A stretch of 37,222 nucleotides of DNA from Parcubacteria group bacterium GW2011_GWC1_45_13 (GTDB taxonomy: Bacteria; Patescibacteriota; Minisyncoccia; UBA11713; 2-01-FULL-45-33), in assembly GCA_001001285.1 (NCBI GenBank), contig LCKG01000001.1, positions 1-37,222 of the forward strand, written 5' to 3'. The notes under the pieces are model-generated. The model saw only the letters and a program-made list of their open reading frames with translations, did not search any database and was not told where the DNA came from. Both the position numbers and the translations under genes were made by a program. Shown here piece after piece: positions 788-34,758 of the stretch (positions within the stretch are counted from its first letter, which is position 1; each line of letters begins with the position of its first letter).

Positions 788-3043
788 TTATGGATTCCGT
801 CCAGCTTTAATTTCTTCTATAAATTGCTCCCCTTGCTCTTTAAATTGCGGATTTATTTCTATGGCTTTTTGCAGTTCTTTTATGGCATTCTGCCTTTCCC
901 CCAACTGCATAAAAGTCGCGGCCAGATTCACGCGGTATTGGGCGTTTTGAGGCTCTTTTTCAATAAATAAAAGCCAGATGTCTCTTACTTTTTGAAAATT
1001 CCCCGCTCGGGCGTAGGCCGTAAGCAAATTTTGGTCTTTAATGATTTTCTTGCCGAAAGTTTTCATCAGGACTTCCTCGGCGTAGTCGCTTTGATTATTC
1101 AGTATGGCGACCAAAGCCATATTTTTAGCGGCTTCGCCGTAAGCCGGGGCGAAATCATAAGCCTCTTTTAAAACCTCAAAGGCTTTTTTATTGTCTCCTT
1201 TGCTTATCAAAATATCGGCCATCAAAAAAAAGATTTGTTGTTTTTTAGGAGATAATTCCTGCGCTTTATCCAAAATTTTAAGAGCGTCATCTATCTTTCC
1301 GCCCTTTAGATAAAGTGCCGAAAGAAAAAGGTATGACCGGGCATCTTTGGGGTTGTCAACAATCTGGCGCTCCATTTCTGAAATTGCTTTCTGTATGATT
1401 TTAATTTTAAGGTCGTTAGAAATATCAAAGGTAATAGCATTGCTGGCATAACTGCTAAATTGCTCTCTTGCCTCGCCATTGCCGAAAGTTTTGTATTCAA
1501 AAACTTTATCAAAATCACCCAAAATCACATCCACGTTTTGGGCCGAAACTGCCATATCTTTTAAAGCATTGAGGAGCGCTTCGCTTGCTAAAAGAGGTTT
1601 TATATTTACGAAGTACAAAGAAAAGATCACCGCGACAGACACAATGACTACAGCAATATATTGAAAAGGAGAAGCACTCTTTGACGAATCCATTTGCGGT
1701 AGAGATTTAATTTCCAAAAAATGGATAAACCCAAGTATTGCAAAAAACATGAAATAAGATGTGAGATTATCAAAAACAAACAAGTTATGAAAAAAATAGG
1801 CGGCGAAAAGCGCGGTAAAAATAGCTTTGGCCAACTTATCCTGCTGTTTCTTCCAAAGTGTATAGAGACTCAAAATAAAAACGCCCAAATAAGCCAGAAG
1901 TCCCAAAATACCGCCGTGAATCAGCCAATCAAAAATTACGTTATGCGCCCGATCAAACCACGGCTCCTGCGGCCAAAGTTGGGGCTTGTAATATTTATTG
2001 AACACCAAATTAAAATTTTCCGACCCCCAGCCCAAAATTGGATGTTCCTTAAATCCTTCCAAAGCCATGCCCCAAATAGTGAACCGCGATTTAATTGTTT
2101 GTTCTTTCAGCGAGATATCGGTAAAACGTTTGAGCACATAATTTTTGTTGATGAAATCCGTATTCTTTAAAACAAAGAAAGCCCCTAAAAGCGTTAAAAC
2201 GACGCCTATAACTCCTCCGGATAAAATTTTAGAACGCCGATCCCCCTCCAACCAAACCTTAAGCAAAGTGAAAAGCGCCGTGCCCCCCAAAAGACCCAAA
2301 ATCGCGCCGCGAGTCGCGGTAAAAAAAACAACCGGGATTTCCATAATGATAACGAAGGCCAGGATACTCCGTATCCAGATTCTTTGCTCCCCGCCTGCCT
2401 GCCCGACGGCAAGGCGGGCCAATTGGCGGGCAGGTTTAAATAAAAAATAAGCCGCGAGAAAAATATTAAAAATCAAAAAAATGGCCAGATAAGTAGAGTT
2501 TCCCAAAGTAGCGTCTAAACGATCGCTAGATTGATGAATCTCCAATTTACCCATGAATTGAAGATAAGAATAGGCGGTAATTATGAAACTCACCGCGATA
2601 GAAGAATAAAAAAATCTCCGCCAATCGGTTTCATTTTTAAACATGCAGATCAAGATTATAAAGTATGCCAAAAGATGAAGATGTGTCACTAGCCCCTCCA
2701 TTCTCTCGTAGTTTGACCAAAAACTGCGATATGGATTTTCGCCGAAAATCGTAGAAAGCGTTAAAACCCCCACTATAGCCAAAACTGCCCAAAAAATCGG
2801 CGAGGTGCGCGGGCGGTATTTTTTATCAAAAATGGCAGCGATTGCCCACAGAGCAAATAAAATTTCAACAACTATGCGGAAGAAAAAATTCTTGCCGGTA
2901 ATGAACGGGAAAAATAAGTCGCCCACTCCCGGCAGAAACATATTTGCAAAAAAATTGCCGGCCACAATTAGAGATAGTGCTGGCAAAATAAAAAGCCCGA
3001 TTTTGACTATTTTAACAATGATGTCTATTGTTTTCTGCGACAT
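788..3043 (-). CDS. O-antigen ligase (Wzy_C/WaaL/O-OTase-like) membrane protein with C-terminal TPR repeats
   Basis: 751 aa with many TM helices. Ligase motifs ATLGNSTYLA, TATRGA, WGMALEGFKEHPILGWGSENF and DRAHN. The C-terminus has TPR-like repeats (A..L.P, e.g. LQKAIEINP). Confidence 0.85.
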   Translation of the reverse strand: MSQKTIDIIVKIVKIGLFILPALSLIVAGNFFANMFLPGVGDLFFPFITGKNFFFRIVVEILFALWAIAAIFDKKYRPRTSPIFWAVLAIVGVLTLSTIFGENPYRSFWSNYERMEGLVTHLHLLAYFIILICMFKNETDWRRFFYSSIAVSFIITAYSYLQFMGKLEIHQSSDRLDATLGNSTYLAIFLIFNIFLAAYFLFKPARQLARLAVGQAGGEQRIWIRSILAFVIIMEIPVVFFTATRGAILGLLGGTALFTLLKVWLEGDRRSKILSGGVIGVVLTLLGAFFVLKNTDFINKNYVLKRFTDISLKEQTIKSRFTIWGMALEGFKEHPILGWGSENFNLVFNKYYKPQLWPQEPWFDRAHNVIFDWLIHGGILGLLAYLGVFILSLYTLWKKQQDKLAKAIFTALFAAYFFHNLFVFDNLTSYFMFFAILGFIHFLEIKSLPQMDSSKSASPFQYIAVVIVSVAVIFSLYFVNIKPLLASEALLNALKDMAVSAQNVDVILGDFDKVFEYKTFGNGEAREQFSSYASNAITFDISNDLKIKIIQKAISEMERQIVDNPKDARSYLFLSALYLKGGKIDDALKILDKAQELSPKKQQIFFLMADILISKGDNKKAFEVLKEAYDFAPAYGEAAKNMALVAILNNQSDYAEEVLMKTFGKKIIKDQNLLTAYARAGNFQKVRDIWLLFIEKEPQNAQYRVNLAATFMQLGERQNAIKELQKAIEINPQFKEQGEQFIEEIKAGRNP
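2390..2434. repeat. 45-nt in-frame compound palindromic element (24-nt outer plus 21-nt inner)
   Basis: Minus strand reads cctgcccgccaattgg[cccgccttgccgtcgggcagg]caggcggg and encodes PARQLARLAVGQAGG. It is a GC-rich island in an AT-rich gene. Confidence 0.8.
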
Positions 3044-8845: not shown

Positions 8846-10772
8846 ATTTTTGTATAACTTCCGCTAATGTTTTGGAAATATATTCTATGTCCGCTTTTTT
8901 AAGACCTATATAAAACGGCAGGGCCACTGCACTATTACTAACCGCTTCGCATACCGGAAAGTCACCCGGTTTGAACCCGAAAGATTTTTTATAAAAACTC
9001 AAAAGATGAATTGAAGGCAAATATGGTTTCGTGCTTATGCCAATTTCATTAAGATACTCAATAACTTTATCCCGATTCACTTTTTTACCCGCCTTGCCGT
9101 CAGGAATGTTTTTTATGCGAACAACGTAAACAAACCAGGTGTGAGTATTATACTTGTGCACTTGCGGAACTTGAACTAAATCGCTATACGGCGCTAAAAA
9201 TTTATTATACCAACCTGCTATTTTTCTTTCTTTGAGCAGCCAGTCCAACTTTTCCAATTGCGCTAAGCCAACCGCGGCGCTCATTTCGTCCATCCTGTAA
9301 TTATAGCCGAGATATTTATGGTCGAGCCACTGCATATTTTCGGACCGTCCCTGATTGCGCAAACTAGCGCATAGCCTATAAATATTTTTGCTGTTTGTCA
9401 CAATTACCCCGCCCTCACCGGTAGTCATCTGCTTATTGGGATAAAAAGCAAAAACAGCCGATTCGCCGAAAGTACCCGCTTTTCGGCCCTTGTAAGTTGC
9501 TCCGAGACTTTCGCAAGCGTCTTCTATAACTTTCAAATTATATTTTTGAGCAATTTGTAAAATAGGATGCATATCAGCCGGCTGGCCGAAAATATGCACT
9601 ATTAAAATTGCTTTAGTTTTTTTTGTAATAGCGCTTTCAATTTTATTTGGATCAATGTTGTAAGTTATAGGATCAATATCCACAAAAACCGGCTTCGCGG
9701 CGACATACAAAATTACATTGGCGGAAGCCACAAAAGAAAATGGGGTAGTAATAACTTCATCCCCCGAGCCAATTTTGGCCGCCAAGAGCGCCAAATGTAA
9801 GCCAGCGGTTCCGCTGGAAACCCCGCAAGCATACTTAGTACCTGCAAACTCAGCGAATTTTTTTTCAAACGCTTTCAATTTGTGGCCCATGCTTAAAATC
9901 CCAGAATTCAAAACTTCCATAACATATTTTTTTTCTCTGGCTGCAATATACGGATGGGCGCTGGCGTAATGTTTGTAGTATCTTAAATAATTTTTATAAG
10001 CTATCTGTAAGCCATCGTGCAAACTATAATTAAATTTATAATTTGTGAGTTTAAGCATTTTTTTATTGTCTCCTATGCTGAACTTTTTTTCAGGCGTGGG
10101 GCTGCCAACTTTAAAATATACCTCTTTGCCGGTAATATTTTCTACCATTCCAATCAAATCCCGCACAGTGTATCCCTTGCCGGTAGAAACATTAACCACT
10201 TCGCGCTGGTTTTTTTGTTTTAAAAAAATAAAAAATTCTATTAGTCCGGCCGCATCTTCAACAAATACATAGTCCCTAACTATTTTATTACCATCTCCAC
10301 GGATAATAAAATCGTGTCCGTGTATAAGCGATAAAAAAATATTGTTAAGAATGCCGAGATTTTTTATATCTCCATAAACATTGGCCATTCTTATAACCGT
10401 TAATGAGCATCCAATTGTTTTCGCGAAACGAGAGATTTTTAATTCTTCCTTATATTTGCTCCGTTCATATTCAGTGGCCGGCATAGGTACAACTTTTTCA
10501 TTCTGCGGGCGAGGGGAATCCGGATAAATAAGCAGAGAGGAAAGATAAATAATTTTCTTTAATTTTTTAGACGCTGTGATTTTCGGGATTAAAACGTCTC
10601 TAACCGCCGTCCCCGGCTGAGTCAACACCACAATTACTTCGGCGTCTAAATAATTGCCTTCATTGATATTTGAGCTCCCCACCGACGTAATCTTACAATC
10701 TTTCCTCGCAGAAAGTTTTTTAGCAAGATGTTCTCCTATAAAACCGGTCCCGCCGAATAATAATATATTCAT
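8829..10772 (-). CDS. Fusion of an NAD-dependent epimerase/dehydratase (N-terminal) and a DegT/DnrJ/EryC1/StrS aminotransferase (C-terminal)
   Basis: 647 aa single ORF. N-half: GGTGFIG, YERSK, NVYG, RDYVFVED. C-half: SSGTAGLHLA, IEDACESLG, FAFYPNKQMTTGEGG (PLP lysine), GYNYRMDE. Confidence 0.85.
   Translation of the reverse strand: MNILLFGGTGFIGEHLAKKLSARKDCKITSVGSSNINEGNYLDAEVIVVLTQPGTAVRDVLIPKITASKKLKKIIYLSSLLIYPDSPRPQNEKVVPMPATEYERSKYKEELKISRFAKTIGCSLTVIRMANVYGDIKNLGILNNIFLSLIHGHDFIIRGDGNKIVRDYVFVEDAAGLIEFFIFLKQKNQREVVNVSTGKGYTVRDLIGMVENITGKEVYFKVGSPTPEKKFSIGDNKKMLKLTNYKFNYSLHDGLQIAYKNYLRYYKHYASAHPYIAAREKKYVMEVLNSGILSMGHKLKAFEKKFAEFAGTKYACGVSSGTAGLHLALLAAKIGSGDEVITTPFSFVASANVILYVAAKPVFVDIDPITYNIDPNKIESAITKKTKAILIVHIFGQPADMHPILQIAQKYNLKVIEDACESLGATYKGRKAGTFGESAVFAFYPNKQMTTGEGGVIVTNSKNIYRLCASLRNQGRSENMQWLDHKYLGYNYRMDEMSAAVGLAQLEKLDWLLKERKIAGWYNKFLAPYSDLVQVPQVHKYNTHTWFVYVVRIKNIPDGKAGKKVNRDKVIEYLNEIGISTKPYLPSIHLLSFYKKSFGFKPGDFPVCEAVSNSAVALPFYIGLKKADIEYISKTLAEVIQKYAKRV
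9088..9108. repeat. 21-nt in-frame palindromic element (degenerate copy)
   Basis: cccgccttgccgtcaggaatg matches the inner 21-mer at 2398-2418 (opposite strand) at 16 of the first 17 positions. It adds 7 codons to the DegT domain (KN-IPDGKAG-KKV). Confidence 0.7.
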
Positions 10773-32968: not shown

Positions 32969-34758
32969 TTTGCAATTTTATACAAATAGATATTACCTGC
33001 CTGTCCGGTAGGCGGGTTGGAAACTATAACCTCTCGAAGGCCGCCGAGAACTGATATGTCCCACTCCGGATAAAGATTCTTATCGTGAACAATGTAATCT
33101 ATCCCGTAGGATTTCAACAAATCTTCAATGCCATTTTTTCTTTTTTTAATAATTGAATATTCCAAATCGAGCTCATAAAGCATCTGCTCTCTTTTTTTTA
33201 AAATTTCCGGGTCGTTATTAATCAATTTTTTATAATAATCAGATATGGTAAGCCCGGATGAAAGACCCTCTAACGATAAGTAAATATCCCGATAAGCAGA
33301 TTCTTCTTGATTTAACTTGTACCGCGGATTTCCTACTTCCCTGACATAATCTGACAAACTGTCTCTTTTTTGTTTGTTTATATATGTATAAACGTATAAA
33401 GCGTCTTTGATTCTTTTAATGGGCACGTTTACCGCACTGAAGGGGTTGCTCCAAAAGAGGTCATGGGGCGTGTAAACTGTGAATAGATAACTGTTATCAC
33501 GTTCGGCCGTAAAAATAACTCCTCCATCATTATTTTTATTTAAAATATCTATAAGCTGCCGGTAATTTTGCCGATATATTTTTAGATCATATCCGGTTAA
33601 CGTTGCCTTATATTGTCCGATAGCCGTATTAATATAAACTGCGATTAAAAGAAAGATCAATATAGCTTTTTTAAATGAGAGCATATATAGGCTTACTATA
33701 ATCGCCATCGGCACCAAAAAAACGTCGCGGTAATGCGCAGGCTGCAAAATTTTTCCTGTGATTATTTGCTGGTTCATCACGGCCCAGCCGGTTAAAATCA
33801 AAGCTAAAATCAGTGGCCAATTTCTCTTTTTTTCTATCTCGCCCTCGCTGTCTTTTGGCCGGGCATAAATAAACGCGGAAAATAAAAGCAACGGAATCAA
33901 ATTCACCATATTAAACATAGGCGTTCTGCCGTAAGATGCTCCAAAGAAATAAAACAGCTGTTTGTTTAATTCTGAATGAAGAGAAATATAAATGCTGTAA
34001 AGATTATATGAGCCAATTATAAGCCCAAAAAAAGTAATAAACAGGATTTTCTTAAAGCGCTCTTTATCACCCCTTATAAAATACAAAAAAAATAAAATTA
34101 AGTTGAAAGCTAAAATATACGACCACGCATACAGATAAATATAAAACAAAAGTCCGAAAGAAAACGCGGTTAAAATCAAATATTTCCATCTCCAAACTTC
34201 CTCGCGCAAACTTTTTATCAGTAAATTCAAATACGCAAAAGTGACTAAAGAAGGAATGTAGGGAGAAAAAGCTTGGCCGTAACCATTAATAGAAAACCAG
34301 AGATGCGGTTGAAGCAATCCGTATCCGCCAACCACCATTAACGATGTTGTTATGGACAATAATTTATCGCTTGAAAGCTCAAGAGCCAAAAAATATATCA
34401 GCAAAACCAAAACAAAAACGCCCAAAAAATTATAAAACGCGTAAATGGTTGTGATATCCGCCTTGTCCGCCAAGCCCAATAAGCGCAGTGGGGTTACGAG
34501 CATGTATTCGCTGTAATTAAAATACGGATCCTGGCCATCTTTTCCTTCTCTGAACGTATAATTGCCAAGGCCGTGCCCCTCCAAGACCTCTTTTCCGCGA
34601 GATAAATACCCCAATTCGTCGCGGCCATAATTGGCTATGTTTATTCCGCGATATCGGTTCCCGGCCATAAAAGGAAAAATTATCAGTGGCGAAATGATTA
34701 GCGTCGCCATAATTAATCCATGGGCAATAATAGCTTTGTGATTGCGCAGCTGCAGCAC
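32965..34758 (-). CDS. Polytopic membrane protein, GT-C-like (paralog A)
   Basis: 597 aa, GTG start. DE motif after the first TM (GRDELGYL), FYIYLYAWS, NQQIITG and YTPHDLFW motifs. Confidence 0.65.
   Translation of the reverse strand: MLQLRNHKAIIAHGLIMATLIISPLIIFPFMAGNRYRGINIANYGRDELGYLSRGKEVLEGHGLGNYTFREGKDGQDPYFNYSEYMLVTPLRLLGLADKADITTIYAFYNFLGVFVLVLLIYFLALELSSDKLLSITTSLMVVGGYGLLQPHLWFSINGYGQAFSPYIPSLVTFAYLNLLIKSLREEVWRWKYLILTAFSFGLLFYIYLYAWSYILAFNLILFFLYFIRGDKERFKKILFITFFGLIIGSYNLYSIYISLHSELNKQLFYFFGASYGRTPMFNMVNLIPLLLFSAFIYARPKDSEGEIEKKRNWPLILALILTGWAVMNQQIITGKILQPAHYRDVFLVPMAIIVSLYMLSFKKAILIFLLIAVYINTAIGQYKATLTGYDLKIYRQNYRQLIDILNKNNDGGVIFTAERDNSYLFTVYTPHDLFWSNPFSAVNVPIKRIKDALYVYTYINKQKRDSLSDYVREVGNPRYKLNQEESAYRDIYLSLEGLSSGLTISDYYKKLINNDPEILKKREQMLYELDLEYSIIKKRKNGIEDLLKSYGIDYIVHDKNLYPEWDISVLGGLREVIVSNPPTGQAGNIYLYKIAK
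32996..33016. repeat. 21-nt in-frame palindromic element
   Basis: cctgcct-gtccggt-aggcggg adds PPTGQAG, which is absent from the aligned C-terminus of paralog B. Confidence 0.85.

Follow-up and report, generated by a model that had tools for sequence, protein, structure and literature searches.

How did a GC-rich block of 45 nt come to lie, in frame, within a cell-envelope gene, for a predicted O-antigen ligase, of a small groundwater bacterium? The gene is found near the start of contig 1 (LCKG01000001.1) of Parcubacteria group bacterium GW2011_GWC1_45_13, whose genome (G000; 756 kb, 28 contigs, 44% GC) is the source genome below; the stretch analysed here, positions 1 to 37,222 of that contig, is called the window. 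A first-pass annotation, made from the letters of the window, had read the minus strand of 2390-2434 as CCTGCCCGCCAATTGG, an inserted CCCGCCTTGCCGTCGGGCAGG and then CAGGCGGG, which matches the sequence exactly, and had proposed that a 21-nt element had entered a 24-nt element in two successive in-frame events. Our comparisons make it probable that the 45-mer arose when two ultra-small, non-autonomous hairpin elements rich in GC were inserted in succession. The features of the locus are:

788..3043, minus strand: host gene with O-antigen-ligase-like membrane domain (Wzy_C) and C-terminal TPR repeats, 751 aa, intact (open reading frame, Pfam, AlphaFold2)
2390..2434, minus strand: 45-nt composite insert encoding the peptide PARQLARLAVGQAGG, residues 204-218, absent at 16 of 20 orthologous loci
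2419..2434, minus strand: 5′ part of the outer 24-nt unit, 16 nt, CCTGCCCGCCAATTGG, assigned by identity to intact units
2398..2418, minus strand: inner 21-nt unit CCCGCCTTGCCGTCGGGCAGG, position weight matrix (PWM) score 31.9, the block missing from +24 alleles
2390..2397, minus strand: 3′ part of the outer 24-nt unit, 8 nt, CAGGCGGG, assigned by comparison with +24 alleles

Empty, +24 and +45 alleles at one codon boundary

The insert forms a sharp GC island (0.756 at 2385-2429, against about 0.27-0.45 in the flanks) and is translated in frame as PARQLARLAVGQAGG between ...YFLFK and EQRIWIR.... In the host protein, Pfam matched Wzy_C (O-antigen ligase, E 3.5e-22) to residues 236-386 and TPR repeats to about 549-737. 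Hydrophobic segments at residues 184-202 and 222-240 bracket the insert, and the native connector between them is K-EQR, four residues. An AlphaFold2 model built on 52 aligned homologues (mean predicted local distance difference test, pLDDT, 90.8; predicted template modelling score, pTM, 0.88) has helices at 183-202 and 217-241, with the insert in the two lowest-confidence blocks of the region (pLDDT 68 and 55). The suggestion that the site is a short loop between two hydrophobic helices was borne out by this topology check, in which both the hydrophobic segments and the modelled helices flank the insert.

Of 41 related genomes, 39 had an orthologue of the gene; 20 loci were compared at the boundary between the Lys and Glu codons. 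The boundary was empty at 16 of them (L002, L003, L005 and 13 more), including those of both same-genus genomes (L002 and L003). L004, from another genus of the family (genome G003, 71% protein identity), carried exactly CCTGCCCGCCAATTGGCAGGCGGG at this position, and the window allele (L001) carries the 45-mer. An unrelated 33-nt insert occupied the same boundary in L009, and a degenerate GC-rich insert of 18 nt, GTGCCGCTTGCCGGCAGA, lay three codons downstream of it in L018 (genome G018). Among 120 database homologues, compared as proteins, one was +45 (P0001, a cluster on five contigs), four were +24 (P0002-4 and P0009) and 115 were neither. By the public names of its close homologues, the source genome belongs with Giovannonibacteria-like Patescibacteria. 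A metagenome scan supplied genus-level DNA for the other two states: L180, which encodes P0002 exactly, reads ...CTTAAA, the 24-mer and GAGCAG..., and L181 and L182 are empty (...TTGTTAAAG|GAGCGG...). The window allele and the +24 alleles differ by exactly the 21-nt block. At the protein level, P0049 and P0058 have other GC-rich inserts in the ligase-gene loop, CLPAKHTDGYVAGR and LPAPETRQAGHK, which resemble units of the arm type in a different reading frame.

Contigs of four runs from four studies spanned the 45-mer without difference or gap; it is therefore not an assembly artefact. When its outer halves are joined (2419-2434 and 2390-2397), the result is identical at 24 of 24 positions to the intact unit at the L004 and L180 sites, and also to free-standing 24-mer copies elsewhere. 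Removal of the inner 21 nt thus leaves a 24-mer that occurs naturally at an orthologous site, as the first-pass annotation had expected, but the palindrome that it called near-perfect is imperfect, with eight Watson-Crick pairs, one G-T pair and one C-A mismatch at the ten arm positions of the sequence. The three states that it had proposed to look for (empty, +24 and +45) all exist as DNA at an identical position, and free-standing units were found as well, 21-nt copies in the source genome and 24-nt copies in related genomes. This shows that the 21- and 24-nt units move on their own.

Dispersed units and their nesting

On the plus strand the inner unit reads CCTGCCCGACGGCAAGGCGGG, which is the canonical orientation of a dispersed 21-nt family. 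The pattern of the inner unit, with up to three mismatches, gave no match in any of 100 shuffles of the window. In the source genome the hairpin pattern CCTGCC, 3-9 nt, GGCAGG with at most one mismatch gave 68 raw matches against 0-8 in ten block shuffles, and an iterated weight matrix yielded 45 non-overlapping 21-nt units, 36 of them strong (PWM score at least 25), with the consensus forms CCTGCCTTGCCGGCAGGCAGG and CCTGCCCGTCCGGCAGGCGGG. The inner unit has one mismatch to the copy at C5:20331 (contig and position in the source genome) and two to that at C1:100841. Two further copies lie in the window:

32996..33016, plus strand: free-standing 21-nt copy CCTGCCTGTCCGGTAGGCGGG, PWM score 31.4, inside a 600-aa minus-strand frame
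9088..9108, plus strand: weaker, degenerate copy of the inner unit's subtype, CCCGCCTTGCCGTCAGGAATG, three mismatches to the inner unit, PWM score 24.2, in a 651-aa frame

For ten units of the source genome, each site was set beside its counterpart in the same-genus genomes; synteny was lacking in one region, and one weak match was not an insertion. At none of the eight comparable sites was the unit shared with the relatives, which showed clean 21-nt gaps at C5:23610, C5:28787, C2:23236, C2:25500 and C2:35574 and an ambiguous gap at C5:20331. No target-site duplication was present at clean empty/filled pairs of either 21- or 24-nt units. The units turn over rapidly between species. At C2:35574-35594 one same-genus genome (G001) is empty and the other (G002, L133 region) holds a different GC-rich insert of 18 nt, CCCTTCAACAAGC..TCAGG, so that the site looks like another insertion hot spot. 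The weak PWM match at C2:31809-31829 was rejected as an insertion because both relatives hold 21 unrelated bases of the same length; this is a replacement at a gene start, ATGCCCGCCGGCAGGCAGG (MPAGRQ...) in place of an A-rich MPKKES..., and the PWM cut-off of 25 removed it from later counts.

Stop-free frames of at least 150 aa contained 33 of the 36 strong units; since such frames make up 86% of the genome, the units do not avoid coding DNA. With respect to the host frame, 27 units were in opposite and six in the same orientation (p 3e-4), and among the former one reading frame dominated (20:5:2, p 3e-5), giving peptides such as xLPAGKAG. We read this frame bias as purifying selection or filtering on the encoded peptide. 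GC skew and unit orientation were not significantly related (p 0.087), in a comparison confounded with gene strand.

The 24-mer has no further copy in the source genome at up to four mismatches. At up to two mismatches it was found 22 times in 9 of 20 genomes of the family, including other loci of both same-genus genomes, and the reversed control pattern gave no match in family genomes. These 22 copies lie in different genes and in five combinations of frame and strand. A scan of a genome collection for the 24-mer arms separated by 0-30 nt gave 47 loci. Exact 24-mers accounted for 25 of them (12 in the PARQLAGG frame), in metagenome-assembled genomes (MAGs) labelled Giovannoni-, Nomura- and Paceibacterota, Saccharibacteria, Patescibacteria and, once each, Nitrospirae and Limisphaerales; the other 22 were longer forms (28-53 nt) with the same arms and other interiors, mostly in MAGs labelled Bacteroidota, Ignavibacteria or Gammaproteobacteria, all of these labels being possibly unreliable. 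More than 35 distinct sites carry the intact 24-mer as the standard unit. Eight 36-nt forms with varied 12-nt interiors came from MAGs labelled Bacteroidota, Ignavibacteria, Rikenellaceae and, once, Gammaproteobacteria. A 42-nt form with arms CCTGCCCGCCAATTG...GGCAGGCGGG and an inner hairpin CTTCGCCGCTAGGCGAT (L050, L066, L068 and L071) came from four MAGs, three labelled Gammaproteobacteria and one Daviesbacteria. A gene for a fused double glycosyltransferase (719-742 aa; L028, G009:C2:81787-84810) holds the 24-mer twice, at 1501-1524 and 2504-2527, 1003 bp apart and in two frames, each time within a GAAAATTGAAAATTG...GAAATTGAAAATT context that is another short repeat.

Viral contigs gave no exact match to the 24-mer. 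The exact 21-mer CCTGCCCGTCCGGCAGGCGGG occurred in 33 stretches on 14 viral-labelled contigs (L144-L176). One of these, an 18.9-kb IMG/VR contig (L146, L158, L159 and L169-L175), has at least 13 exact copies, and several more viral-labelled contigs from the same sample are also copy-dense.

Unit-in-unit insertion was not confined to the window, where the junction on the plus strand is CCCGCCTG^21-mer^CCAATTGGCGGGCAGG (carets mark insertion points). Among the 22 family 24-mers, three are nested with 21-nt units in the reverse relation, 24 in 21, at CCCGYCTG^CCGGACGGGCAGG (L030 and L032) and CTTGCCTG^CCGG... (L031); about 0.03 such cases would be expected by chance, a rough estimate from the share of the 21-nt family in the source genome (about 0.1%). 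A strict junction pattern was found in 4 of 401 genomes of the class (that of the window, G016, G135 and G156) against 0 for the control, and in G135 and G156, which belong to other families, a 21-mer lies in a 21-mer. Six nested pairs in six genomes have the insert in canonical orientation after the eighth base of a reverse-oriented host, CCYGYCTG^CC. A second geometry, CCTGCCTYG^21-mer^CCGG, occurs with unrelated flanks at G000:C4:1243-1290 and in G002:C5. Nesting is recurrent and its geometry fixed; it is a rule and not an accident. The possible self-targeting raised in the first-pass annotation thus gains support from six pairs with one arm-relative insertion point. The nested pair at C4:1243-1290 has no syntenic counterpart in G001, G002, G003 or G014, and hence provides no second three-state series.

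Both units have flank preferences. At 36 distinct 24-mer sites, position -1 is a purine at 35, -2 is A or T at 31, +1 is G at 22 and +2 is A at 20, summarised as W-R^G-A, with AA^GA the commonest class. The 21-mer (n=36) prefers G^C-C, with G at -1 in 15, C or T at +1 in 30 and C at +2 in 16. The nesting junction in the window (G^CC) fits this general preference, and the host hairpin supplies it. Composite GC-rich blocks of 21-nt family units also occur at C11:14027-14050 (CCTGCCTGCCGGCAGGCAGGCAGG) and C3:58224-58270 (about 47 nt), the second of which may be a further nested pair after CTTGCCTG. The 24-mer (1501-1524) is central in another GC-rich hairpin family, CCCGCCTTCGCTAAA^GCTTCGGCGGG, at L025, L026, L035 and L046, and lies within CCCCTCCTTCGTAAG^GAGGGG-type hairpins at L037 and L045.

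Number and order of insertions

Trees were built after removal of the insert. In a careful tree the genus-level clade (support 99/98) comprised four lineages, one +45, one +24 and two empty, with their branching order left unresolved; in a quick tree the +45 lineage paired with the genus-level +24 lineage (SH-aLRT 77.7). A tree constrained to unite every carrier, the G003-type P0009 among them, in a single clade was worse by 252 log-likelihood units (approximately unbiased test, p-AU 0.00034), and the minimum number of gains was two. The tree thus rejects a single origin of the +24 state, and the site has therefore been struck at least twice. The 24-mer is identical at all 24 positions in the window, L180 and L004, in flanking coding DNA that is about 70-80% identical. 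A recombination tract as the source of the shared +24 state was ruled out, because identity between L001 and L004 over the coding DNA of the host gene is not raised near the site (0.58-0.79 per comparison window against 0.70 overall). The host gene holds only 19 sites of the class AA^GA, ten of them at codon boundaries. A repeat strike is plausible because of the flank preference of the 24-mer and because survival is expected only in permissive loops, and the GC-rich inserts of other lineages in the ligase loop (L018, P0049 and P0058) fit a hot spot.

The most economical history would begin with the 24-nt unit landing between the Lys and Glu codons, in the four-residue connector of two membrane helices, in the ancestor of the window lineage and L180 (or by two separate insertions). 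The G003 lineage would have gained a 24-mer at the identical site independently. Later, and in the window lineage only, a unit of the 21-nt sister family would have landed inside the 24-mer, at the border of stem and loop (CCCGCCTG^CC on the plus strand). Each length is divisible by three, and the consensus units are free of stops in every frame, so the gene stays open and the insert is translated as a floppy loop. The claim of two successive in-frame events is upheld by the series of empty, +24 and +45 alleles, and we infer the order, 24-mer and then 21-mer, by parsimony. Both units may have been moved in trans, as single-stranded hairpins, by an enzyme that recognises structure.

Other histories would account for some of these data. 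A single old +24 insertion, dating from the common ancestor of the two genera, preserved without change and repeatedly lost with precision elsewhere, would explain why position, orientation and sequence are identical in both. It is unlikely, since the tree would demand at least four precise losses (P0005/6, P0007, P0008, P0011 and P0010), identity at 24 of 24 positions is not expected where flanks are about 70% identical (0.7^24, about 2e-4), and none of the eight comparable 21-nt units is shared even within the genus; the flank preference with its permissive-loop filter, which makes a second strike plausible, and the hot spot to which the other GC-rich inserts in the loop point argue in the same direction. 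The polarity within the genus could also be reversed, the +45 state being ancestral in the subclade and the +24 state of L180 derived from it by precise excision of the inner unit. Y1-type elements do excise precisely (PMC6006769), and the +45 and +24 lineages are sisters with an unresolved outgroup state, but it is as an intact 24-mer that the unit normally occurs, at more than 35 distinct sites and, in another genus, at this same site. We regard reversed polarity as distinctly unlikely, and it would change only the order of events, because nesting and mobility would still be implied.

Arrival of the 45-mer in a single step, as a pre-formed composite, with the plain 24-mer alleles at the site as separate events, is very unlikely. 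Composites are indeed met again at unrelated loci, as seen from the 21-in-21 pair with unrelated flanks at G000:C4:1243-1290 and G002:C5 and from the 42-nt form, present in four genomes, in which the same arms enclose an inner hairpin. However, the arms have no other copy in the source genome, and there is no second 45-mer with the interior of the window among the 47 arm-pattern loci (a scan from which the window's own record was apparently absent); L092 is 45 nt long but has a different interior. A single step would moreover require a third strike, at the same site and in the same orientation, beside a sister lineage that has the 24-mer. It is extremely improbable that the block is not mobile DNA at all, and reflects instead an assembly artefact, a peptide motif under selection, or a palindrome generated locally by hairpin-templated synthesis or slippage. 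The reading frames of the 21-nt units, strongly biased in the commoner orientation (20:5:2), could be taken as the mark of a selected peptide, but unrelated genes hold near-identical units, which are read in several frames and are also present in intergenic DNA; the units form exact indels against orthologues, and the +45 allele is present in contigs of four studies.

Candidate enzymes and comparison with known systems

For the two successive insertions that we favour, the best enzyme candidates are HUH/Y1 transposases, of the type of the REP-associated tyrosine transposases (RAYTs; REP, repetitive extragenic palindromic sequence) or IS200/IS605, because no duplication is left, excision and insertion are precise and the action is on hairpins. 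Single-stranded DNA substrates, recognition of hairpins and precise excision and insertion are described for HUH/Y1 enzymes in excerpts of PMC6006769. The source genome has six PF01797 (Y1, RAYT-like) genes that score above the curated cut-off, all outside the window:

G000 C17:1008-1256, C8:18283-18540, C4:31075-31305, C4:72129-72383, C22:9200-9424 and C12:3211-3447: Y1 (PF01797) genes

A separate palindrome, perfect or nearly so, brackets each gene (for example CACTTGG...CCAAGTG types, GTCAAACA...TGTTTGAC); those of C4:72129 and C12:3211 overlap the beginning of the frame. The assignment to Y1 enzymes is a doubtful one, because the palindromes of the six genes are unrelated to the units and no enzyme is tied to the CCTGCC family. 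Neighbours of seven sites (weak, composite or short-frame copies) were ordinary-looking open reading frames, no family scans of these neighbours having been made.

Several results weigh against the proposed history and mechanism. No palindrome of the CCTGCC..GGCAGG type lies beside any of the six Y1 genes of the source genome. The viral-labelled contig densest in copies (at least 13 in 18.9 kb), a fragment estimated to be 28% complete, has no PF01797 match. Folded as single strands, the 45-, 24- and 21-mers are no more stable than shuffled sequences of matched composition (z -0.65 to -1.74). The enrichment of 24-mers in other hairpins (after removal of the unit, 16 of 35 distinct sites have at least five pairs across the junction, compared with 28% of control positions, p 0.018) is modest, and its sites are partly non-independent. 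Because support for the +45 and +24 lineages as sisters is weak (77.7), the order of the two insertions depends on parsimony. The repeated active insertion claimed in the first-pass annotation holds on an evolutionary time-scale, whereas polymorphism within populations was not seen: the contigs of the four runs contain no second allele, and contigs cannot reveal rare variants. To our knowledge, a single hairpin of 21-24 nt is smaller than any unit shown to transpose. Finally, REPs are thought to move as doublets, according to the abstract of PMC3116915.

The units resemble REPs and REPINs (inverted REP doublets), which in excerpts of Di Nocera et al. (2013, PMC3733652) are dispersed, imperfect GC-rich palindromes of 20-40 nt, with tens of copies per genome, noncoding but in some cases inside open reading frames and translated; as in REP/REPIN-RAYT systems, the genome also has Y1 transposase genes. 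They differ in lacking a terminal GTAG or CGTC tag (PMC3733652), since they end in CCTGCC... and ...GGCRGG and such tags are only internal in some variants. The mobile indel is a single 21- or 24-nt hairpin and not an inverted doublet (compare Bertels & Rainey 2011, PMC3116915, in part), and units nest in units, the word 'nested' being absent from PMC3733652. Unlike miniature inverted-repeat transposable elements, which combine terminal inverted repeats with a target-site duplication, the units leave no such duplication, and at 21-24 nt they fall below the 70-300 bp range given there (PMC3733652). In contrast to REP-RAYT systems, the palindrome of the units flanks none of the six Y1 genes of the source genome, and the units are mostly intragenic (33 of 36 strong copies) and not extragenic.

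Among Rickettsia palindromic elements (RPEs), RPE-1 measures about 100-150 bp and is known only from Rickettsia, whereas the present units measure 21-24 nt and were found in MAGs with labels from several phyla. The likeness to RPEs is in-frame insertion of a palindrome into intact-looking genes with an added peptide (PMC3733652, in part). The units work like REP or RPE elements without belonging to those families. IS200/IS605 elements have a strict tetra- or pentanucleotide target, whereas the units here show only a loose flank preference. They resemble IS200/IS605 in precise insertion without duplication and perhaps in hairpin recognition and a short target preference, but those elements have two distinct subterminal hairpins and each unit here is one hairpin (Quentin et al. 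2018, PMC6006769, in part). The GC clusters of yeast mitochondria are likewise short GC-rich hairpins in AT-richer DNA, with presence/absence polymorphism, 'merger and shuffling' into composites and a mechanism left unresolved (Wu & Hao 2015, PMC4478555, in part); they are organellar and have a putative AG duplication (PMC4478555), whereas none was seen here, the hosts are bacterial and most copies are translated. An open-access literature search found nothing on in-frame hairpins of 21-24 nt or nested REP-like units in Patescibacteria or the Candidate Phyla Radiation.

It is quite possible, if rather short of probable, that the units are a class of their own, 'nano-transposons', and would be the smallest DNA for which movement as a unit has been shown. 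Each would be one hairpin that enters W-R^G-A or G^CC sites in trans and without duplication, by copying or by cutting and pasting, with a preference for the stem-loop border of hairpins of its own kind. An enzyme other than a classical flanked RAYT, maybe one that is undescribed, would have spread them through bacterial phyla and phage-like contigs. The rule of insertion (host CCYGYCTG^CC, with the flank preferences) can be used in a hunt for that enzyme.

The series of empty, +24 and +45 alleles at one codon boundary is like a natural experiment. It shows that hairpins of 21 and 24 nt each act by themselves as a complete unit of insertion, much smaller than transposable elements whose mechanism has been demonstrated, and that such units can stack into longer composites. 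For the annotation and alignment of Patescibacteria proteins this calls for caution, as such inserts mimic lineage-specific loops. For bacteria with small genomes, it offers a concrete route by which essential proteins gain loops.

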